46,698 nt of DNA from Chrysochromulina tobinii. Lineage: Eukaryota. The stretch lies in NCBI GenBank assembly GCA_001275005.1, contig JWZX01003327.1:1-46698 (forward strand). The letters run 5' to 3'. Position numbers and translations under genes: made by a program. The first letter of the stretch is position 1. Each line of letters begins with the position of its first letter. Positions 6,520-46,698 of the stretch are shown piece after piece. The notes beneath the pieces were generated by a model. It saw only the letters and a list, made by a program, of their open reading frames with translations. It made no database searches and had not been told where the DNA came from.

Positions 6520-8682
6520 TCAGAGCGTCATACCGGCGCGCGCGCCGTGGTTGAAGTCGAGGAACAAGAGTTCCTTGTACGTGGCGAGCGTCCAGAGCGA
6601 CGGGGGCACGAGCGCTTCGACGGCGTCGCAGATCTTGCGGATGTCGACCATAGTCTCGAGACGCAGCACGCGCGCCGCGGTGGCCTTGTCGTACGACGTG
6701 TCTTTGTGTTCCATGGCGTGTAGGTCGGCCTCGAGCTTCTTGACGGCCGCCGTGAGCTGGGTGACCTGGCTGGTCAGGTTCACCTTGGTCGCCGACGGGA
6801 TGATGTGCTGCTGGATCATGTCGACCATGCACTTGGCCTCGATCTCGACGGTGCCCGCGTAGTGGTTGTACATGATCGTGGCGCGCGCCTCGCACTCGTC
6901 GGGCTTCATCACATTCATCTTGGAGAAGAGGTCTTTGTTCTTTTTATCGGTGAGTTTCTTGCACGCCTCGACGCCCGAGTCGATGCGGCACAGGCGGCGC
7001 CTCTCCGCCTCGATCGGCCACTCTTTTGAGTAGCCGTTGCCGTTGAAGATCACATCCCACGACTCGTTGAGCATCTCGGCAGCCACATCGGCGGCCGCCT
7101 TGCCCTCATCCATCTGATCCGCGATCATCTGGAAGGACTCGGCGATGGTGGTGCAGAGCACGGTGTTGATCATCGACACGTTCTGTGACGAGCCGGCCGC
7201 GCGGAACTCGAAGCGGTGGCCGCCGTACGGGAAGGGCGAGGTGCGGTTGCGGTCCTCTGCCGGGATCTTGACGGGTGCCACGCCGTCGATACCGAGGTCG
7301 ACGGTGACCTTGTTCGGGGTGTACACTACGTTCCTCTTGCCCTTGCGGAATTCATCGAGGTAGTCGGTGAGCTGCTGGCCCAGGTACGTGGACATGATCG
7401 AGGGCGGCGCCTCGCACGCCCCCAGCCGGAAGTCGTTACCGGGCGAGGCGATTGCCATGCGGAACAAGTCGCCGTGCACGAACATGGCGCGCACGACGGC
7501 CGAGATGACGATGGGGAAGATGTCAGCGTTGCCCGACTTCGCAGTGAGCTGTGGGCCATTCATCAGGTTGACGCCCTCCGGTGTGCCCAGCGAGAAGTTG
7601 TTGTGCTTGCCCGAACCGTTGACGTGGTTGAAGGGCTTCTCGTGGAGGATTCCGACGAGGCCGTGCTTCTGCGGGATCTCGTCAATGAGCTGCATGAGGA
7701 CGAGATTCTCGTCGATCTGGGTGGAGGCGAGGCCGAAGTAGGGCGCGCACTCGTACTGGTTGGGGGCCACCTCGCGGTGGCGCGTCTTGAACGGGCAGCC
7801 CATCTTGAAGCCCTCGTGCATGATCTCCTGCATGCAGGCCAGGGCCACTTGGTTGAGCGGCGCCATGTAATGGTCGCACAGCTCCTGGCCGCGCGCCGCG
7901 TCACGTCCCATGATGGTGCGGCCGGCGAACTGGAGGTCGGGACGCTTGTAGTACGCCTCGCGCGGAATCAGGAAGAACTCCTGCTCCAGGCCGATGTTCG
8001 GGATGATGTTCGACACCTCGTAGCCGAGCTTCGAGAGCAAGCGCTTTCCCTGCGTGCCGAGGACCTTCATAGACTTGAGGAGCGGCGTCTTCTCGTCGAT
8101 GGCGATGCCGTGCCACGAGACGAACATGGTCGGGATGAAGACGGTGTCACCGCGGATGAACACGGGCGACGTCGGGTCAAGGATCGTGTACCCGCCGGCC
8201 GTGTGAGTGGCGCGCAGGCCGCCGTTGTGGAACGACGATCCGTCGGACTCGCCCTGGATGAGCTCATCGCCCGTGAAGACGTACTCGAGCTCGCCCTTCT
8301 TGTTGAAGTTGAACATGGCGTTCTGCACGCCGGCAGTCTGGCCGAGGCGCAGACCGGCCGAGCCGAGCGGCTGGAAGCAGTGGACCGTCATGGTCGCGCC
8401 GCGTTCCTTCGCCCACTCGATGATGGCCTTGGCGACCTTGTGGGCAGTTTCCCTGTCCAAGGTCCAGTCGGAGGTCGAAAGGAGGTTCGCGGGAAGGCCC
8501 TGCTTCACTAGGTACTTGGCGGCCACCGTGCCCATGAACCGGTTTTGGCCATACGAGCTCCTGTTGGCCTCGAAGTTAATCTCGTACGGCGGCGGCGCGC
8601 TCGGAGGAGGCGTCAGGGTCGCGTCGTACATGTGCACGTCGTCGAACGGCATGGTAGACATGTGGGATTGGCAGCCGCCCAT
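6520..8682 (-). CDS. glnN: Glutamine synthetase type III
   Basis: 720-aa intronless ORF with GSIII motifs: HCFQPL, GESDGSSF.NGGLRATHTA.GY, GLEQEFFL, HREVAPNQYE, HEKPF..VNGSGKHNN, DRNRTSPFPY, FEFRAAGSSQ. Confidence 0.95.
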   Translation of the reverse strand: MGGCQSHMSTMPFDDVHMYDATLTPPPSAPPPYEINFEANRSSYGQNRFMGTVAAKYLVKQGLPANLLSTSDWTLDRETAHKVAKAIIEWAKERGATMTVHCFQPLGSAGLRLGQTAGVQNAMFNFNKKGELEYVFTGDELIQGESDGSSFHNGGLRATHTAGGYTILDPTSPVFIRGDTVFIPTMFVSWHGIAIDEKTPLLKSMKVLGTQGKRLLSKLGYEVSNIIPNIGLEQEFFLIPREAYYKRPDLQFAGRTIMGRDAARGQELCDHYMAPLNQVALACMQEIMHEGFKMGCPFKTRHREVAPNQYECAPYFGLASTQIDENLVLMQLIDEIPQKHGLVGILHEKPFNHVNGSGKHNNFSLGTPEGVNLMNGPQLTAKSGNADIFPIVISAVVRAMFVHGDLFRMAIASPGNDFRLGACEAPPSIMSTYLGQQLTDYLDEFRKGKRNVVYTPNKVTVDLGIDGVAPVKIPAEDRNRTSPFPYGGHRFEFRAAGSSQNVSMINTVLCTTIAESFQMIADQMDEGKAAADVAAEMLNESWDVIFNGNGYSKEWPIEAERRRLCRIDSGVEACKKLTDKKNKDLFSKMNVMKPDECEARATIMYNHYAGTVEIEAKCMVDMIQQHIIPSATKVNLTSQVTQLTAAVKKLEADLHAMEHKDTSYDKATAARVLRLETMVDIRKICDAVEALVPPSLWTLATYKELLFLDFNHGARAGMTL

Positions 8683-10013
8683 GTTGTTTGAGTTGCTTGT
8701 TTATGTGCGGGCGCGTGACCGCGAGGGTTGGGGAGTAGTCGATCCCTTTTTTCGGTCGGAAAATCCTGCATCCGGGGTCTTGCATCGGCTCATTTCCGCA
8801 GCTGGATGCTGGAAGTTGAAGTGTAACGCTTTTTTGGTAGTTTCAACCGTCGGACGATAAAAATGTCGCGAAACACATACCGGTAGCATCCTCTACAAAG
8901 CCTCTTGTCCCCAGATTAACCCAGGAGACTAGGAGACAACGTTCTTGCTCGAGATACATGGAGATAAACAAGCAAGAACGCAAAGCAAGCAAGCAACCGC
9001 ACGCGTTTACGGTTTAGTCGTGTTGTGTTGTACCTGTTGTTTCGACTGCTTCTACAGTGTAGGCAATTGAGTGTAGGTCTTAGCTTGCCACCTTGCTTTC
9101 GAGATACAATGTAAACAAGGTGAAGACTGTAGAAGACTGTAGAAGAGCTTTTGCATGCATTGAGTCTGTGTCAGGCTCTCAGGCATATTACATGTATAAT
9201 TACATGTATTGTGGTTACATGGGTTATTGGCTTATTGCGTCTCCGTGTGCACGGCAGCTGGGGTGTGGAGCTACTCCGGGGTCAGGGGGGGGCGGGGGCT
9301 ATCCCTTTGGGGGGGGTCCTATCGGATACGTATCCTGATGTATCTGATCATGTATCGTGCGTGTAAGGTGTACATGTATCCTGAAGGATTTCGTAATATG
9401 TGGGACTGTCATCTCGCACCTGTGGCGCTCGTGGGAGGAGCGCGCTGCGTCACTGTGCAACGCAGAGCTCTGTCCTGTACCTCCTGTAGGTGCTCGAGCG
9501 ACGAGTGTATCCTCGGCGCGCTCGCGGCGGCGCGAAACGTCGTCAAGGGATGTCGACGGGGGTGTACTGTAACGGGGGTGTACAGTAACAGCTTTTGTAA
9601 CGGCGACGGTGCTCCTCTCGCGTGAGCGCGGGGGCAAGCAAGCTCGCGCTCCGAGCGCGCGCGCGCGCCGCGCGCTCGGCAGCCGCCGCTACAGTACCGG
9701 TACGTGCATCGACGTGCGCGGCCCTCAACATGTAGCTTAGTTGCGCAGGTCGTCGCAACTCGTTGCTTAATCCAGCGGGGGCGCCCGGCGAGCCGCCCTG
9801 TAGGAATCCTACATGCCGAGAAGCGCGAATAAAGCGCGTGGTTTGTCGCTGTTGGAGATTTTCACGAACTTGTGCTGACACACGTGCCCCCTGTAATTTG
9901 CAGCCCCTCTTTTCTCATTGTGAATGGGGGCTCACGCCGTGCCCGCGCGCCGGGCCGTCTCGCATGAGTTCTCGCACGTGGAAAACGGGAAAACGGGGAG
10001 AGAGAGAGTGCGT

Positions 10014-16290: not shown

Positions 16291-18427
16291 GGGTCCGCGT
16301 GCGCATCCTCTTTGCTCCCGTCTGCCAGCCGACTGCGCCGCCGCCCACTCGCCGAAGCCACGCGCGCCGCGCCGGGCGTGGTGGGCGACAGGCCGATTGG
16401 TGGTACCGTACCCAGATTGTCGGTTTGCAGCTGCAAGCCGCCGAGGGGGGGCTTGCGCACGGCGGGCGAGGGGCCGCTCGCAGGCATCTGGTCGAGCGTG
16501 CCTTGACGGGTTGGCATTGGTGGCGCGCGCCGCCCGAACGAAGCTGCGTGAGCTCGACTGCTCTCAGACTCTTCGCCCTGCTCTCGCGACTCTTCGGAGT
16601 TGGCACCGCCGCCCCCCGCGCCGCCGCGCGGCTGCGCGTGCAGCGCCTCGATCTGCCGCTGCGCCGCCTTCAGGCGCGCAGCGAGAGCTTCCTTCTCGGC
16701 GAGCGCTTCATTGAGTTGTCGCTGTGCCTCCTTAAGATCGGCGAGCTGCTGCTGCGCCATGCGCGCCGCCCCCGAGGCGCCGCTGGCCGAGGCCGAGGCG
16801 GCGGCGGCCGCGCCGCTGCCCGCGCCGCCGTCGGCGGCGCTGCTGCTCGCCCCTTCACAGGGAAGCTGGCGCCGCTGCGCCTCATGCGCTATCCGCTGCT
16901 GCAGCACCCTGATCGTCTCGTCACGCTGCCTCAGGGCCGCCGCGAGATCTTGCCTGACCGACGTGACGACGGCAGTGGAGGTGGCGTCGGAGAGACTATC
17001 GCTCCGGAGAGTGTGCTCCACGTGGCGAAGCACCGTCTCCGACAGCTGCGCCGGCATACCGCCGCGCACCTCGTCAAAGTGCGCTCCCACCTGATGAGGG
17101 AGGCAATCAAAGCTCATCAGGGCTGATGAGGTAGGCAATCAAAGCTCGTCAAAGTGCGCTCCCACCCGTCGCTCCCATTCCGCGGCGGTGATGGTCTGCC
17201 GAGAGCCCTCAATCGCACTCGGCTGTGGCGGCGGCATCGGGGTGGAGCTCGTCGAGGGTACGGTGCATCCCTCGACGAGGGACTCGACGCCGTCGAAGAA
17301 GGCATGCCTCAGCGCCATCGAGGCCGTCAGCCGCTTCTCCGGATCGTAGTTGAGCAGCCGCTGGGCAAGGTCGATGGCGGCCTCGGGTGTCTGTGCTGGG
17401 AACATTCGCTCCCATGGGTACGCCTTCAGTTTTGGCAGGTCGTCGGCGCAGCAGGTGGCGCGCATGGCCTGAAGGTCGTGGTCGGTGGGCGTGCCCAGAA
17501 GCTTCATGATCTCCACCAGGTGCTGCTGAGTCGAGTCCTGCCCCTGGTAGGGCAAGTGGCCGAGGAGCAGCTCCATCAGGATCGTTCCGACCGACCACAC
17601 GTCCACGGACACCGAGTACTCGGTCGCGCCGAACATGAGCTCGGGCGCGCGGTAGTAGCGCGAGCAAATGTACGAGACGTTGGGCTGCCCCTTCACGAGT
17701 ACCTTGGAGCACCCAAAGTCGCACAACCGGCACTTGAGGCTTGCCGGGTCGCACAGCAAATTGTCGGGCTTGATATCTCGATGGCAGATGCGGCGCGCGT
17801 GGATGTACTCGAGCGCCCCAAAGGTTTGCCACAGGTAGGCCTTGATGTGATCGGGGTGGAAGCGCTTGGCGCGCTTGTGGTACTTGAGCGCGATCGAGCG
17901 GATCGTCTCGGGCAGGTAGTCCATCACGAGGTGTAGAAAGGTCTCATCCTTCTTGCGTCCGTTCTTCTCGAAGGAGTGGCGCAGCCGGACGACGTTGTCG
18001 TGCTCCATGACCTTCATCATCTGCAGCTCGCGGTTGTGGTAGCGACGGTCGAGCAGCACCTTTTTTATGGCGACGATCTCGCCGTCCTCGGTGCGCGCGC
18101 GCCACACGATGCCAAAGGCTCCGTGGCCGACGACCTTCTCCAATTGGTAACGGTGGCCGCCGCCGTCCCAGACGGTGCCCTCCTCGACGCCCTCCATGAG
18201 ATCCGCGACCTGCGCGCAGGTGCGAGCGGACAGTCAGGCGTGTGATCGACGTCAGCGCGCCCGGCTGGCCAGGTCACGCTGCGCATGCTCTGCTGTGATG
18301 AGGAGAGAGGCGGTTTGGAGGTGCGCGATGGGAAGGCTTAACGAAGCCAAGAGCTCGCTGCGAGGAGCTGCGTGCGGTCCGGAAGCGGGTGCTGGGGGTG
18401 GCAGTGGCTCACATGGTCCGTGCTCAT
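16272..18427 (-). CDS. GSK3: GSK3/shaggy-like kinase with long C-terminal coiled-coil extension; exons 18427-18413, 18209-17166, 17090-16272
   Basis: GHGAFG, VAIKK, HRDIKP, DFG and the GSK3 activation loop GQPNVSYICSRYYRAPEL. Two phase-0 GT-AG introns give a 625-aa frame. Confidence 0.9.
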
Positions 18428-24748: not shown

Positions 24749-25382
24749 TCACGGCGTTGTCGCTGCACGACCCTTTTCCACGCGATCGGCGTTGCCGTGG
24801 TCAGAATTCGGTGCAGCGTCCTCCTCCGCGTGCAAACCCTCGTCGACGCCCTCAGCGCCGCTGCCATCAAAGAGACCAGCGACCTGAGGCCTGCGGCGCT
24901 GGGACTCCAAGCGCAATAGGTACTCCTTTGCCCACTGGACACTTTTCGCAACGTCAGCCTCTGGCGCTCCTGCGGCCTTTAGCACGCGACCGAGGATCTC
25001 CTCGCTGCGTTGCCCAGAGACGTCGAACTCGCTCCGGTGGCCGTCAGCGAGCTCGACAATAACCGCAAGCACCCTTTTTGTCCTCCTCAGCCCATCGCTG
25101 CACAATGGACGCATCGGGGTTTTGCCATCGCAGCGCTGGCATGAGCTTGTTGAATTTGCGCGCGCCCGCCAACCCAACGCCTTCTGAAGCGTGCAGAATC
25201 TTCAGTGAGGTCAGTGAAGCCAATCGCAGCGGTGCCGCCTCGAGCGGCTCACGCAGCTTTCCCCATCCAAGGTCAACGTCTTTGACCTTCGCGAGCTTGC
25301 CCCCCGCGCGCTTGCTCGCAAATCCACGCGTTGCTGCACCCCCCCGCAGCGGCCCAGCAGCGGATGTTGCCCGCGCGAGCAT
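24749..25382 (-). CDS. Mitochondrial L51/S25/CI-B8-domain protein with apparent +1 frameshift near 25075
   Basis: Presequence-like MLARATSAAGPLRGGAATRGFAS. GARKF..LMPALRWQNP lies in one frame, and the domain continues as VIVELADG...FDVSGQRSEEIL in the +1 frame. Confidence 0.65.
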
Positions 25383-25624
25383 CGACCTGTCTTTTCCTCG
25401 TGCCGTGCCTGCCGCGAGTTCGAGCGTCCTCCTGGGCGCTCGATTTCGACGCACCCCTCAACACGACGTTGCTTTTCTCCGACACATCGTCTTCTTTTCG
25501 CTCTCCGCTTTCCACAGCTCCACAAGTAGCTTCTCCGAAGTCGGCCACTCAAAAACTTGCAAACTCGCGACGCGCGCGCGCGCGCACTCACACGCAGACT
25601 GGCCGAAGATACTCCGCGTCGGCC

Positions 25625-26686
25625 ATGGGATTGTGCGGAGGCGGCATCAGCGCGACCATCGATCCGGCAGTCACGCTCCGAAACACTCACTGCCTGAAGA
25701 AGATACGCGAGGATTGTGAGAAGGCTCACAATAAGAAGAAGCTGCTTCTGCTCGGCGCGGGAGAGTCGGGCAAGTCGACCGTCTTCAAGCAGATGCGCAT
25801 CATCAACGCCTCGGGATACTCGAGTGGCGAGTTGCGCCAGTTCCGCTGGATCATCCATCGCAACATGATCGACGGCATGCGAACCCTCGTTGAGGCGGCA
25901 CAAGAGCGGGAACTTGAGCTCACCGAGAGCAACGAGGACGTAGCCGACGCCATGCTTCTCTATCAGGGTGAGAACGTCAACCCCGAGATGGGCGAGTCTT
26001 TCGCGTCCCTTTGGGCAGACCCAGCCATCCAGCAATCCTTTGCTCGCCGCGCCGAGTTCCAGCTGGGCGACGGCGTCCAGTACTTTTTCAACAACCTGCC
26101 CCGGGTCGCCGCCATCGAGTACCTCCCCACTGTCGAAGACATCCTGCACGCGCGTGTTCGCACGAGCGGTGTCGTGAGTCGCGACTTCGTGATCAACAAC
26201 CAAGCCTTTCAGATGTATGACGTCGGTGGGCAGCGCAGCGAGAGGCGCAACTGGCTGCCACTCTTCGACAATGTCACTGCAATCGTCTTCGTGGCAGCCA
26301 TCAGCGAGTACAATCAGGTGGTCGCCGAGGATCGCTCCAAGAATCGCATGCAGGAGGCCCTGGAGCTATTCGAGCAGATTGCCAATAGCAAGCACTTTGA
26401 GGGCATCGATATCATCTTGTTCCTCAACAAGAAAGACCTTTTTGAGCAAAAGATCCGGACCGTTGACCCGGTTACCTGGTTTCCGGACTACAAAGGTGGA
26501 TGCGACTTCATCAAGGCAGAGGCGTACTTCAAAGCGCAGTTTGAGAAGCGTATCAACGACAAAAAGAAAATGCTCTACACCTACACGACCTGCGCGACTG
26601 ACACATCGAGCATGCAGGTTGTGTTCACTGCAGTCGAAAGCATGTTCCTCACGCAGGCCTTCGACTCGGTCATGCTCGGGGCGTAG
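25625..26686 (+). CDS. Heterotrimeric G-protein alpha subunit
   Basis: MGLC acylation start, GAGESGKS, RVRTSG, DVGGQ, NKKD and TCATDT; 353 aa, intronless. Confidence 0.95.
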   Translation: MGLCGGGISATIDPAVTLRNTHCLKKIREDCEKAHNKKKLLLLGAGESGKSTVFKQMRIINASGYSSGELRQFRWIIHRNMIDGMRTLVEAAQERELELTESNEDVADAMLLYQGENVNPEMGESFASLWADPAIQQSFARRAEFQLGDGVQYFFNNLPRVAAIEYLPTVEDILHARVRTSGVVSRDFVINNQAFQMYDVGGQRSERRNWLPLFDNVTAIVFVAAISEYNQVVAEDRSKNRMQEALELFEQIANSKHFEGIDIILFLNKKDLFEQKIRTVDPVTWFPDYKGGCDFIKAEAYFKAQFEKRINDKKKMLYTYTTCATDTSSMQVVFTAVESMFLTQAFDSVMLGA

Positions 26687-40472: not shown

Positions 40473-41618
40473 CTAATTGGCCTCGACGACCGCAGGGGCG
40501 GCCTTGACAATCTTGGCGAAGCCGAGCTGCCGGTGCTCATAGTCGAACTTGACGTAGTGGGCGCGCATGAACACGTCACCGAGGATGTACAAAGGGCCGG
40601 CGGGTGCGGGCACATCGAGGCCGGTCATCGCGAAGAGGCACTCCGGGCCGTTCTGGAGCGTATAGTCCTTCTTGGTCAGCACGTACTCGGCACCCGCGAT
40701 CGAGATGGTGATGTCCGGTCCCGGACCATCACAAGGGATCGTGTACTCCTTATTCAGGGGTGGGATGGGGCCGAGAGGCTTGGCGCCGACGGCGGCGGCG
40801 ATGGCCTTGATGTCGGCTGAGGGTGCAGCGAGGAGCGAGGTGCCCGAGTCGATGATCGCCCTGTGCGCCGAGCTCACCGACTTGCCCGCGATCGTGATAT
40901 TGTCCAGCGAGATCTCCCAATAGCCAAATTTGTTGGTCGCCGTTGGGATTACGGGTACATACTTAAACTCACCGGTGAAGTGGGCCGGGTTGACGCCCCC
41001 AAGGACGAGCTCGCCGGCGGCGCCGTCGTGGCCGAGATAGAAGGCGAACACAGGTTCGGAGAGCTTGCCGGACGCCACGAGTGCCATCAGAGGAGTCGGA
41101 ACACCGTCGACTGAAATGTCGTCGAGGCCCATGCCACAGATGCCGTCAAACTTGCCGAGCGCGTACGCGGGTCCGAGGCCGGCGGTGTTGTTGACCTCGG
41201 CGAAGAGGTATGACGTCAGCGGAATGTCGCCCATCGTGACCACGTCACGAGAATAGAAGCCTGACACGGGTCCACTGCCGTACTGGATGTGGAAGGTAGA
41301 GCCATTGACTGTATGCGTTGCAGACTTGCGCGAATCGTAGTAGTGGTGCCGGCCCTCCGCGAAGTTGGCCACCCACAGGTTGGACGAGCCGGTGTCGTAA
41401 ACGACCTCGAGCTTCTGCGGCGGCGTGCCCACTGAGATCTCGCCGTAGTACTGCGCGTCCTGATAATCATTAATCACAATGGAATCGACCTCGCCGAGCG
41501 CGGAGTAGCCCAGGCGCAGGCTGCGCTCCATGGTCGTGCGGTCCGGAAGCTCGCGCTTCTTGAGCGGCATGGTGTAGAAGGCTTCGGAGGCAGCGAGGAG
41601 CGTTACGACGGCGAGCAT
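40473..41618 (-). CDS. Pepsin-family aspartic protease (cathepsin D-like), secreted/lysosomal
   Basis: Signal peptide, DAQYYGEI.VGTPPQ, two catalytic motifs DTGSSNLW and IIDSGTS, and ILGDVF. Confidence 0.95.
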   Translation of the reverse strand: MLAVVTLLAASEAFYTMPLKKRELPDRTTMERSLRLGYSALGEVDSIVINDYQDAQYYGEISVGTPPQKLEVVYDTGSSNLWVANFAEGRHHYYDSRKSATHTVNGSTFHIQYGSGPVSGFYSRDVVTMGDIPLTSYLFAEVNNTAGLGPAYALGKFDGICGMGLDDISVDGVPTPLMALVASGKLSEPVFAFYLGHDGAAGELVLGGVNPAHFTGEFKYVPVIPTATNKFGYWEISLDNITIAGKSVSSAHRAIIDSGTSLLAAPSADIKAIAAAVGAKPLGPIPPLNKEYTIPCDGPGPDITISIAGAEYVLTKKDYTLQNGPECLFAMTGLDVPAPAGPLYILGDVFMRAHYVKFDYEHRQLGFAKIVKAAPAVVEAN

Positions 41619-41708
41619 TATTCGTTGTTGCGTGTGGTCCAGGCGTCAGTGTCAGGAGTCGCCGAGCGAGGGCTGCGCTCCAAACATGAAAGCGAGCGCC
41701 CGACATCA

Positions 41709-43536
41709 AGAGTCCTTTCCGTCGATGGCTCAGGAGAGGCAGATGGTGGGTGGGGGGTTGTCGTTGTACACGGAGGTCGTGGGACCCAGACTGATACTAC
41801 GGCCCGCCACCATGCCACTTTCTACGGACCGATTACGCTCCAGACGACGGCCCCACCTTTCTTGGGCGCCGAGCGCGGTACCAACAACGTGGCTGAACTC
41901 ACGGCCTTTGCGGAAGCCCTCGTGTACCTACGGGACATCGAGGGATCCGCCACGCCCGCCATCATTCGTCCGGACTCCACGTATGCCCGCGACGTGGCCC
42001 TTGGTACCGTCACCATCTCCGCTAATTGTACCCTTGCCCGCCAAGTGCGGCAACTATGGATTCACGAGGAGGCTCGACGCGGTGGCCAACTATGGGCTCT
42101 ACACGTTAAAGCCCACTCCTCTAATAAATGGAACGCAGCGGCGGATCATGCAGCGGCTCGCGGTGCCCGCGGCGAGGCCCGAGGCGTAGGGACACGGTGG
42201 GCGGACTGGCCACCGCTCCCACCCCGCAACCTCCGCGCCCATGAGGTGAGTGAATCTGAGCGTGTCATCCGTGCAACACATGCCTTTGGTGTGCTTGCCA
42301 TCCCTGTCCCTGTTGGTGATCACCTGACGTCGACAGACCAGATAGAGGCGTGCACACGAGCCATCCTACTCCGCCTCAACCTGGACAGGAGTCCACGTGC
42401 TCCACAGGCAGTTGCCCGGGTACGCGCTGCACGGACGCTGCTCCTTGATGCTACCCGTCAGCGTGCGGAGGCTCTCCGCCTCATCCGAGAGGGCCTCCAA
42501 CCGATTACGCGGGTGTTAACCTGTCCGGTTAATGCCGCTGCCATGCGCCGCTACATTCGAAACGCAGGTCCGGAAGCGGACGCCCCCAGGGCGGATGGCC
42601 TTGGCACTCTGCGCGAGCGCGCTCGGGACTTCCTGCACGCCCTCGGACAGAACCACGCCGTTCGCATCACGTACCATCACTGTCGACTCGGCGCTGCCCT
42701 CGTGGCGGCGGGATTCATATGCACTGCTCGTGAGTACGCCCTCCGAGGGGATGTAGATCCCTTCCGACTCCCGCGTGCCCTGCGCGACGTTGCCTTTGCT
42801 GGCCGTGGCCATGACCTGGATGACTCGGCCTCTTACCCCCGTGCGTGCCTTGATGTGTTCCAATCGGGGCGTGAACAGTCCAGACTGTTCCTCGCGCACC
42901 GTGAGCAAGTCCTCGCTGAGGTTGGGCTCTTCTTTCTCGGACCCCATGTCTCAGCACCTGCGCGCCGCAAAGCCGCGAAAGACTTGTTCAATGCCCTTGA
43001 TAATGATGGCTCCCTGGAGGCTTGGGAACGACGCCAGGGATGCCCGGCGATGATGCAAATGCCCCCCTTTGCGGTCGGGACTGACGGGGGAGGTCTTCAG
43101 CCTCCGAGCTTACCAGGATAGCCGCCGCGCTCTGACAGGCGAGTTTACTCGTCGGATGCCCACACTGGTCGCCTTTGTTCGCGCTTGGCTTGCACTCCAC
43201 AAGCCCGATAGCGAGCACAAATTCGCACTCACGGCCAAGTCTTTTTTCCTTCAGGAGGCGGAAGGCCTCTCGCGCGCCGCGAAGCTTACCTGGTCACGTC
43301 TGCGGGGCGCTGGGGAAATCACGAGCTTACAACATGATGGTGTTGTCATGGTACTCTCCCAAGGCGTGACATCTACGGATGCATGTGCTGCCTTGACGGA
43401 GGTGTGCACCGCGGCGCTTGGCTATACGCAGCCCGTTGAGGAGAAACCCTTTCAATTCGACCCTGGTGACTCGGAGGATGACCAGGACAGTGTTGCTGAT
43501 GCGGACGCGCGCCCTAATACTCCCCTGAACCCATGA
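41709..43536 (+). CDS. RNase H1-type domain / degenerate J-domain / TV-Pol-like (family A-related) polymerase, split by a +1 frameshift at 43054-43118
   Basis: RNase H: VDGS, TNNVAEL, PDSTYA, HVKAH, NAAAD. Polymerase-like: AREYA...RLPRALR, HDLDDSASYPR, RKAAKDLFNAL, then in the +1 frame FFLQEAE and SLQHDGVV. Confidence 0.7.
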
Positions 43537-43554
43537 CCCCTCGCAAGCTTGCTC

Positions 43555-43894
43555 CGCCCAGTTCCCCTCTGAGAGTCTCCCGGCAAGCTACGGCCCCGGA
43601 GCAGGGATGCTGGTGCGTGCTATGCTTGCGCCCCTTCGTGCCCCTCGGGGGCTCCGTTCTGGCTTCCACAGGCGCCGCTTCACCCAGTGTCCCTCTGAGA
43701 GCCTCCCGGTCAGCTACGGCCCCGGAGCAGGGACTCTGGTGCGACCCTCGCCTGTGTTGTGTCTGCATCTCCCCCGTTGGCTTCCACAGGCGCCGCTTCG
43801 CCCAGTGTCCCTCTGAGAGCCTCCCGGTCAGCTACGGCCCCGGAGCAGGGACTCTGGTGCGACCCTCGCCTGTGTTGCGTCTGCGTCTCCCCCG
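43555..43894 (+). repeat. 118-bp tandem repeat (two near-identical units plus one diverged partial), each with a hairpin
   Basis: Units start at 43661 and 43779, with a partial copy at about 43556-43617. Confidence 0.9.
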
Positions 43895-44292
43895 AGGGGG
43901 ATGGTATGGTGTGAGCATGTGCCCCGCTTCTTCACCCACACGCACCGTCGGCTCATTCGTGGGCTCGCCTCGCCGTCTACTTAATGATCGTAATCTTTCT
44001 CCTCTTCATCCGCTTCCTCCCCTGGGGCTCATTCTCTTCTACTGGCGCTGGGACTCTTCGCCGAGTGTCACTTGATGACGGACCCGCTGCTCCCGAGACA
44101 CATCTTTGCCTAGGCCGATGATCCTCCTAGCGTGCTGGGGGGGGAGACTGAGGATGGCATTTGTTGAGTTCGGCATAGCATGATTCGTCGCCTTAGCTAG
44201 AGACCGGTATGGTTTCTTTCTAACAAGTCGATTACCCGTGTGTATAAGCTCGACTCGAAGCTATTTGGGGTTCCCGCCGCGTTCACAGTCGG

Positions 44293-44937
44293 GCCGCGTA
44301 CATCGGCACCGGTCGGTACTCCATCGACGCGTGGCTGCTGCCAAACTTCCACCGGCTCCTCGTGCAGCTCACCCAAGGCGGGTGGGAGCGCGACGACGCC
44401 GTCCTCATCGTGGCGGTCTTCATGGTCATGAGGATGCCGCTCGCCTGGGCCCTGCGCGACGTCATTGGTCCATTGTGGTGCGCCGCGACTGCGTACGCTG
44501 TCGCCGAGGTCCTCTCCCGGCGGGCGCGCACCCTGTGGACCTCCGACGCGACGGCCGTCGCGCCTGCGTTCAAGCTACTGTCGGAGCTCGTGCGAGTCAA
44601 TCCCACTTGGGCGGGCCTGACTGCGCCGGGCGTCGCCGCCGGCCTCTCCTTCGTCGTGCGCGACGTCATCGAGACGAACTACGGAGGCAAGTACGGGGTG
44701 CGTGTGTCGTACGAGGAGGGCGACATGCGTCTGTTCCAAAACAAATCGTCCGCCTTGCGCACTGCCAGAGTCCCCGAGGGTCATGATGAACAATCACTTT
44801 TCGACGCCGCCGGCGTCGAATCGCTTTTCCCGTCAACGTACGCGCCGCCGACTGGTGGCGGACCCTTCCTGTCTCTGCAGGAGGCCGGGGCGGCGCAAGA
44901 TGAATTGTCCACGCGCTTCTCGTACATATCTGTGTGA
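44293..44937 (+). pseudogene. Start-less coding fragment of an unknown protein
   Basis: Open frame with host-like codon usage (AAYIGTGRYSIDAWLLPNFHRLLVQ...FSYISV*). There is no ATG between the upstream in-frame TAA (44245) and the internal Met at about 44422. Confidence 0.4.
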
Positions 44938-45027
44938 TCTGACTACGGTGGTGTCGCAAAGAGATTGCTCATCATCACCCTCGGGGACTCTGGCAGTGCG
45001 CAGGGTGGACGATTCGTTGTGGATCAG
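44731..45027. repeat. 87-bp inverted repeat (arms 44731-44817 and 44941-45027)
   Basis: Ungapped alignment by eye with 13 mismatches and a 26-bp perfect core. Confidence 0.9.
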
Positions 45028-45526
45028 GCTTCGAGCCCGCGATCCAAGAAGTGCGGTGAACGCTGGATCAGCTCTGCCTCTGACTCGGGCCCGGACGGCC
45101 CTCGGGAGCTCTGCCCGCACCACAGAGCACAGGTGCCTGCACGCATGCCTGACAGAACGGTACGAGAAGCGCATGCATCGAGCCATCGACCATCGTGCCC
45201 TTTCTACATACGATACATGTACATCGCTTGATCTGTACGGACCAGCGATCCAGCGTTCTGGACACTCGAACTGGACACATCCGATCGGTCAGTCGTTAAC
45301 GTCAGAGAGATCATTTCATCAACGGCATCGGAATCCTAACGTATGGCGCGTAATCACGGTTCGTCGATTCCTGCGTTTACGGATTACGCGGACGGGCGGG
45401 GGGTGCAAGAACGCAGAAACCTGTGTATACGCGAGGGGGTGCATATATACACACCCGCTGTGTTCCTGTGTATACGCACCTACCGCTCGCGTAAACGCAC
45501 CCGCACCATGACCATGACCATGACCC

Positions 45527-46507
45527 GCCCTCGGTCGTCGCGAAGACTTCGACGTCGCTCGCGGCTTCCGACATGAAGTCGTCGACGGCGTAATCGGCGA
45601 GCGCGGCGAACTCCTCCGGAGCGTCGGCGGTCGCCGTGCAGCCACAGCAGCACGGCGTGCAGGTTGCAGTGCCGGCAGTGCCGGCAGTGCCAATTGCATG
45701 CCTTATCGAATGAAAACTCTTCTTTTCTGTTTTCGCGGCGTTCCCAAATTCTCGAGACGTCGCATCCCGACAGCCATCCACACCCTCGTCTCGATGAGCT
45801 CCGCTGCCGCGGCCGCCAGCGGCTGCTTGCCCTTGGCCTGCTTCTGGCGCAGGAGCATCAGACGAGGCCAACATCGTTCTGACGTCACCGAGAAGTTTGG
45901 CAGTGCATGCATGCATGCATGTTGACTTTCTTGGGGACGACAATTACCTAACACATACCTAACACATAAAACCACACGCTGGTCATCCAGGGTGCACCCT
46001 GAGGGTCTGTGGAGGTCTCGCAACGTGTGGGAACCGATCGACGTGCTTCGCGCGCGCCTGCCGACAGGTGGTGAAACCATACAACCTGCTAGGGGTGCGT
46101 TCACTAAGTGGGAGCCTGGGATGCCGGTCGCGCTAGGCGACCAACTCCGCCGGCCTCGACTAAAGTGAGCGTCCTCCCAAAGGCATCCCTATAATAGGTG
46201 GCGCCCCTCCCTGAATATCTACTTAGATACCTATTTCTTTGTCTCTAGCCCTTGTTCCGGTCGCGCTATGTCTCGGGGACAATTGCATGCCTTACCGAAT
46301 GAAAACTCTCCTTTTTTGTTTTCGCAGCGCTCCCAAATTCTCAAGCCCCGTCGCGCCCCTACAGCCATCCACACCCTCGGCTCGATGAGCTCCGCTGCCG
46401 CGGCCGCCGACGCTCCGGAGGAGTTCGCCGCGCTCGCCGAGTACGCCGTCGACGACTTCATGTCGGAAGCCGCGAGCGACGTCGAAGTCTTCGCGACGAC
46501 CGAGGGC
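45527..46507. repeat. Scrambled duplication: 45527-45630 is an inverted copy of 46404-46507, and 45691-45817 is a direct copy of 46280-46408
   Basis: Direct sequence comparison. Confidence 0.9.
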
Positions 46508-46698
46508 CACGGCGACGTGAGCGCCGAGGAGATCCGCTTCCTGGCGAGAGACCCACACGCGCACGACCGCGTCATGAGCCGCGTTGCTCGGCTGCCCCGT
46601 CGGGCGCTCTGGCGCCTCCTGCGTGCCGCCGGCTTCGATGAGCCCGTCTGGCAGACGAGGATCCGCCGGGCCACCGCTGCCTCCCTTGCCGAGGAAGT
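46385..46698 (+). CDS. Hypothetical protein, 3'-partial (MSSAAAAADAPEEFAALAEYAVDDF...)
   Basis: ATG at 46385, open to the window end, host-like codon usage, preceded by an AT-richer promoter-like stretch. Confidence 0.5.
   Translation, partial: MSSAAAAADAPEEFAALAEYAVDDFMSEAASDVEVFATTEGHGDVSAEEIRFLARDPHAHDRVMSRVARLPRRALWRLLRAAGFDEPVWQTRIRRATAASLAEE

Follow-up and report, generated by a model that had tools for sequence, protein, structure and literature searches.

A LINE variant that carries a conserved, predicted family-A polymerase is a real feature, and one of its copies lies in the DNA analysed here, a stretch of 46,698 nucleotides from Chrysochromulina tobinii (contig JWZX01003327.1, forward strand; hereafter the window). 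Positions 41724..44237 are almost certainly a broken, 5'-truncated and frameshifted copy of a multicopy L1-like LINE. The features on which the following argument draws are these:

41724..44237, + strand: LINE copy, 5'-truncated, comprising the 3' 2.5 kb; sister copies extend 5' of 41724 and seven loci stop at 44237/44238
41724..41725, + strand: 5' junction, a 2-nt GA common to host and element (microhomology), from the empty allele versus element contigs
41724..42167, + strand: RNase H domain (Pfam PF00075, E 1.2e-9) that retains the D-E-D-D residues and the His of HVKAH but lacks its first strand
42228..42509, + strand: J-domain-like helical fold without HPD (model, with VIA and Foldseek matches)
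42510..43449, + strand: predicted family-A polymerase domain of TV-Pol type; its key residues are the hairpin Arg (42729), the Asp of motif A (42819), the RxxxK stretch (42966-42980) and the Asp of motif C (43336)
43086..43090, + strand: G run with one extra G, shifting the frame within the fingers region of the window copy
43537..44237, + strand: 3' UTR of about 700 nt with three repeats of about 120 nt, each with a motif also found in distant subfamilies; no poly(A)
40473..41618, - strand: aspartic protease gene (host, outside the element; Pfam Asp, E 1.5e-79), start codon 105 nt from the insertion

The left boundary of the copy can be read from an empty allele. In two of the four sequencing runs compared (X3 and X10), the host flank continues to 41725 and is then followed by different letters, the element being absent, whereas element contigs start matching the window at 41724. 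Element contigs of runs X1, X2, X3, X10 and X17 extend upstream of this position and encode the missing RNase H start, and the sequence of loci L004 and L009 likewise extends upstream. Because the element begins at 41724, the first RNase H strand is missing from the window copy and everything upstream is host. The preliminary description had placed a catalytic VDGS at 41724; the motif is present (VDGS 41721, Asp codon 41724), but its V is host DNA. On the other side, a search of the window and 34 loci for the sequence that follows the junction in the empty allele gave nothing, and the present right flank is therefore not original. It was replaced by further insertions or a deletion, so that the target-site duplication proposed as a check is not readable in the window copy; at L006 and L007, at most a 5-nt CGGGG stands on both sides of the element.

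Sister copies begin at different places (L009 279 nt further up than 41724, L006 and L007 at 42706, L020 at 42716), while the 3' end is fixed at 44237/44238 in seven loci with four kinds of flank besides that of the window, and an A tail is absent from all eight 3' ends read. The contig depth of the element is 2 to about 20x that of the flanking gene, a depth that is not a copy number. A dispersed repeat with nested 5' ends, a common 3' end and an empty allele bears out the earlier reading of this region as a mobile element, and a non-LTR-type reverse transcriptase (RT) and an endonuclease in cis, variable 5' and fixed 3' ends and insertion polymorphism are features of LINEs. A single-copy, spliced host gene had been named as the outcome that would speak against mobility; what was found are dispersed copies with nested 5' ends, and the empty allele together with the upstream LINE sequence rules a spliced host gene out. 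A preferred target in the neighbouring repeat was also considered, given that the window, L003 and an X4 contig share this repeat, and three other flank types argue against strict specificity. Of the 87 differences between L002 and the window, 75 are located within the element, so L002 may be a collapsed assembly. A second subfamily (L011, L012 and L013) is 59% identical in the polymerase and has a differing RNase H, upstream region and 3' UTR as well as a polyproline linker, differences which suggest module swapping.

Within the window copy, the RNase H region has RNase HI as its nearest solved sequences, and the remaining catalytic motifs reported for it are all found (AEL 41892, PDSTY 41970, HVKAH 42102, AAD 42138). 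The polymerase motifs also lie where they had been placed: AREYA at 42726, DLDDSASYP at 42813, RKAAKDLFNAL at 42966, LQEAE at 43249 and LQHDGV at 43327. The last two are in the +1 frame, as described earlier, and the cause is the extra G in 43086-43090. This G is absent from contigs of three of the four runs compared, from L002 and from P0003, and is present in L014 and L015, which represent the same locus in other assemblies; it is most likely a real lesion of the window copy. A programmed frameshift was rejected in view of sister copies without the extra G. No in-frame ATG was found upstream of RNase H in a motif and ATG scan.

The coding part of the window copy corresponds to about one quarter of the 2,449-aa frame of P0187, which together with P0192 (2,413 aa) sits in the 90% cluster of P0003. 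Each of the two proteins is a single frame, and identity to the two window frames amounts to 94.8% and 91.4%. Both have the order APE endonuclease, RT, zinc knuckle, RNase H, J-like fold without HPD and a polymerase domain of 315 aa. Pfam recognizes Exo_endo_phos (E 9e-10), RVT_1 (E 1e-20) and RNase_H (E 3e-10) in P0187, and all three in P0192 as well. The matching order was read from DNA in one frame of 2,588 codons at L016 (3-7769), which is open at its 5' end and 60% identical to P0187; here, too, Pfam gives the endonuclease and the RT, and in a ranking against solved structures alone this RT is nearest to human L1 ORF2p (E 3e-10 versus 2e-5 for R2). Longer copies thus carry an APE endonuclease and an L1-like RT in the part that the window lacks, which answers what lies 5' and agrees with the truncation of the non-LTR type proposed in the preliminary description.

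Searching with the RT region alone returned nine proteins of 1,423-4,529 aa, five of which carry the polymerase domain (P0167, P0168, P0176, P0178 and P0179). Among the other four, P0175 and P0180 have RNase H and two end before RNase H; since four of nine RT relatives do not have the polymerase, related LINEs may move without it. RT identity between the two main carrier groups is 40-47% and the polymerase is kept in both, and the RT tree, with its 10 rows, is too small to tell one gain followed by losses from several gains.

For the C-terminal part of the window frame Pfam gave no match, and PHROGs gave none for the polymerase domain. The assignment draws on predicted structure. P0004, which is 90% identical to the window over residues 270-455, was modelled with a 69-row alignment (pLDDT 93.7), and its residues 1-318 fold into thumb, beta-hairpin, palm and fingers. 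The PDB entries listed by Foldseek for this model were all family-A DNA polymerases (best E 2.6e-5), and a VIA structural search matched Pol theta (Z 15.4, rmsd 4.0, 287 aligned) and Klenow (Z 13.9). In a library of viral structures, 15 matches have E values between 7e-13 and 2e-7. They include virophage replication proteins (of Zamilon and Qinghai Lake virophage) and helicase-polymerase proteins, and a gap separates them from entries named DNA polymerase, which score 3e-5 or weaker; the best among the viral models are virophage TV-Pol-helicases. The C-terminal domain is accordingly predicted to fold as a family-A DNA polymerase, and the superfamily-A palm first proposed from motifs has its counterpart in the model, the absence of any structural match having been named as the result that would count against it.

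Catalytic positions are preserved across the family: per covered column, and among 160 domain rows from 166 proteins chosen by a family profile, which favours conserved rows, the hairpin Arg is kept in 109 of 109, the motif A Asp in 115 of 115 and the motif C Asp in 90 of 92, and in RxxxK the R is kept in 90 of 114 and the K (motif B) in 113 of 116. The polymerase domain is under purifying selection. L002 compared with five close copies gives dN/dS values of 0.07-0.11 in the polymerase (against L004, 37 synonymous and 8 non-synonymous differences), and values of 0.11-0.24 were obtained against distant subfamilies where dS was computable, the distant values being saturated. Two carriers depart from the compact form, P0176 with a duplicated fingers stretch and P0178 with an insert of about 340 aa near the domain start.

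Between RNase H and the polymerase lies a helical linker of 94 aa, which the preliminary description missed. It was modelled with a pLDDT of 90.5, and its best VIA match is a DnaJ-like domain (Z 8.7, rmsd 2.9, 71 aligned), J-domain proteins making up most of the top 20. The best Foldseek E value is 0.049; both searches agree on J domains, with scores that are modest for a helical domain, and at the sequence level no match was found. We describe the linker as a predicted J-domain-like fold. The HPD motif is a feature of J-domain co-chaperones, and because it is absent from all 57 rows of the linker, the fold is unlikely to act as a co-chaperone.

In other LINEs, synthesis of the second strand presumably falls to the reverse transcriptase or to host enzymes. 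For the element described here, we lean towards a polymerase responsible for second-strand DNA synthesis, or for filling in at the 5' junction, when a new insertion forms. Following established LINE biology, the APE endonuclease would nick the target, the RT would copy the element RNA from the nick and RNase H would clear the RNA. The polymerase, kept at the site in the same chain, would then extend a microhomology-paired host 3' end across the cDNA, or might use a remnant left by RNase H as its primer, and the J-like fold could act as a nucleic-acid-binding or priming partner rather than as an Hsp70 co-chaperone. Such activities have a precedent in the TV-Pol CCPol (PMC7581432): given dNTPs, it elongates primers of either DNA or RNA, and it may make use of microhomology. 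For R2, a review (PMC13586686) names host Pol theta, Pol delta/epsilon or Pol alpha-primase as the enzymes behind second-strand synthesis, and describes the details, including which enzyme acts in this step and at the 5' junction after target-primed reverse transcription, as unclear; the R2 RT is also reported there to manage the second strand by strand displacement. Against a second-strand role stands the observation that local copies are still 5'-truncated, at four places, so that full-length insertion is not ensured. The coupling of RNA removal to the polymerase is looser than the preliminary description suggested, Penelope-like carriers of the polymerase giving no RNase H match.

A related but rather unlikely alternative is that the J-like fold and the polymerase together form a primase that starts the second strand de novo on bare cDNA, the J-like fold taking the place of MP, the partner of CCPol. 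PMC2579912 predicts primase-polymerase activity for TV-Pols, and CCPol primes only with MP, CCPol-MP doing so with dNTPs on single-stranded DNA (PMC7581432). The J-like fold also stands directly before the polymerase in most long frames and at several positions, and it is visibly divergent in P0176 and P0179. However, the title of 10.1101/2022.12.02.518924 presents MP as an SSB-type partner, unlike the helical J-like fold, and the 2-nt microhomology at the junction fits a priming-free extension of the host end.

The module occurs well beyond the window's own family. Profile searches over the collected proteins place the polymerase, mostly with the J-like fold, at five positions in three kinds of frame:

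Position 1: after RNase H in L1-like frames
Position 2: after RNase H in another LINE type (P0172, P0173)
Position 3: before the RNase H of that other LINE type (P0170, P0139)
Position 4: between a GIY-YIG-like domain and a CxC motif (P0033, P0038)
Position 5: inside an RT, after a DK motif (P0030, P0171, P0042, P0050)

Carriers at positions 4 and 5 look like Chlamys Penelope-like elements by their motifs. The six long ones have CxC, DK and RT-like motifs, and five of the six have an N-terminal GIY-YIG-like motif by pattern; neither an RT nor a GIY-YIG domain was matched in these carriers by Pfam, by a PDB sequence search or by comparing profiles with L1-type frames, and no RNase H match was obtained in the six. 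Since L1-like LINEs, Penelope-like frames and a further LINE type hold the module at five positions between them, it has likely moved repeatedly among retroelements and is likely common to several of their classes. In a quick polymerase tree built without a viral outgroup from 70 rows, each covering 250 aa or more of the domain, the Penelope-like label needs five changes, at least three of them forced by strong branches, P0170 groups with the Penelope-like carriers apart from P0172, and the window's family joins L016, P0167 and P0168 with a support of 98%. The carrier frames also show shuffling of chromodomains (P0170, P0176, P0178, P0179). Two single observations belong here: P0060 shows, by eye, an APE-like start, RNase H and polymerase without an RT, and P0169 has a weak GNAT-like stretch.

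The same pattern could be taken as the mark of an active hitch-hiker. On this view, RT template switching carries the module as an in-frame insert from one retroelement frame to another, and the module persists through its own propagation or through some side benefit (element DNA might be copied outside the chromosome, for example), integration not being the step it serves. That three kinds of frame hold it at five places, including one within an RT, that the label changes repeatedly on the tree and that chromodomains are shuffled is what this reading would lead one to expect. We nevertheless consider it improbable: no nuclease, integrase or splicing motif of the module's own was seen, and the strong purifying selection in one family requires a benefit to the carrying copy. 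As a tentative synthesis, to which we give slightly less than even weight, a virophage-type module of J-like fold and TV-Pol may have been acquired repeatedly by unrelated algal retroelements as a self-contained second-strand primase-polymerase, allowing them to complete integration themselves.

That the domain is instead an RNA polymerase or an RNA-templated enzyme of the T7-like kind, making for example element RNA or primers, is very unlikely. T7 and mitochondrial RNA polymerases do match the model in the VIA search, but at Z 9.1-9.3 they score below the DNA polymerases, and 111 of 113 rows have Tyr, Phe or His five residues after the motif A Asp, which we take to be the sugar-gate position that is small in RNA polymerases. 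A point in favour of an RNA-templated activity is that CCPol-MP extended a primer on an RNA template (PMC7581432). An artefact, either a chimeric assembly or a chance join of a host RNase H exon and a viral gene fragment, is hardly credible, for although all long frames come from metagenome-type assemblies, the domain order recurs in many independent proteins and in clusters down to 30% identity, an empty allele exists, and pattern scans that reach close relatives turned up none among viral contigs, phage records and prokaryote genomes.

This search for a viral or prokaryotic home of the module used a pattern scan that reaches close relatives only, and it gave no convincing candidate: none of 100 candidate stretches in viral contigs is a relative, no phage record was picked up, and the one hit among 72 candidates in prokaryote genomes lies in a glycosyltransferase-like frame and was taken as chance.

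Plant L1 elements with RNase H are known from the L1 group of non-LTR retrotransposons, and the element resembles them in its single frame with APE, RT, C/H knuckle and RNase H, in its 5'-truncated copies and in their common 3' end. It differs in a frame of 2,400-3,800 aa that ends in the J-like fold and the family-A polymerase. A 3' poly(A) or simple-repeat tail is a feature of the L1 clade, whereas the element has no poly(A) tail. An upstream ORF1, another feature of that clade, was not seen in the sequence covered, where the frame at L016 is open at its 5' end. With the TV-Pol family (Iyer, Abhiman and Aravind, 2008; Sputnik V13, Zamilon, SCCmec CCPol) the domain shares the minimal family-A core, the hairpin Arg, the two Asp residues and RxxxK. 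According to PMC2579912, TV-Pols belong to DNA elements, where they stand by themselves or are joined by a D5 helicase or an all-helical N-terminal domain; their links are to D5 helicase, resolvase or integrase, and fusions to nuclease domains never occur. The domain presented here, in contrast, forms one chain with RNase H, APE and RT in retroelements. It is 11-16% identical to its viral matches, and Pfam scans of the carriers found no helicase. The Chlamys elements (Craig et al., 2021; PMC8557442), to which the six long Penelope-like carriers are likened by motifs alone, are described in that paper as having accessory domains inserted in the RT, with PHD, SAP, Josephin-like and zinc-knuckle additions, and the word "polymerase" occurs 0 times in its main text. 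A full-text literature search at the level of title and abstract found no retroelement with a family-A polymerase; Repbase, Dfam and subscription journals lie outside its scope and may hold an earlier note.

The finding breaks the rule, published in PMC2579912, that TV-Pols are unfused to nucleases, and it links virophage-type replication enzymes to retroelements. With a candidate second-strand enzyme in the same chain, one point mutation could test the second-strand or 5'-junction step. In addition, gene insertion by means of retrotransposons, for which truncation is named as a limit, could benefit from a compact polymerase.

The preliminary description ended the feature at 43536, which includes the coding motifs and leaves out the 3' UTR that runs on to 44237. 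A motif of about 45 nt has three occurrences in the 3' UTR of the window copy (43548-43870) and two in most sister copies; subfamilies with no more than about 50% protein identity have it as well (L017 1582-1656, L018 1832-1906, L022 1869-1943). Its two-stem consensus has compensatory changes in 3 of 16 pairs, and the motif may be an RNA signal bound by the element's protein. Rfam gave no match at E<=1 on 41600-46698, and the last 148 nt of the element fold no better than shuffles (z 0.58).

The insertion lies in the 41618-41724 region, 105 nt upstream of the start codon of the opposite-strand aspartic protease gene, and is missing in other strains; it may alter the promoter of this gene. Downstream of the element are further repeats (44287-44727 and 46098 onward) and inverted arms (44731-45027 and 45527-46507), and L003 (1833-3652) has some of the window's 44287-46698 pieces behind its own element copy in a different order. 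For both the element protein and the adjoining aspartic protease, the cluster-mates that bear names are Chrysochromulina parva proteins, and the best-matching sequencing runs with a stated habitat are freshwater; this haptophyte or a near relative of it is the likely host. Contigs of RNA runs cover small shares of the stretch only. Elsewhere in the window, frames judged by eye are presumably host genes, namely a glutamine synthetase III-like frame (6520-8700, - strand), a GSK3-like kinase (17139-18233, - strand) and a G-protein alpha subunit (25286-26686, + strand).
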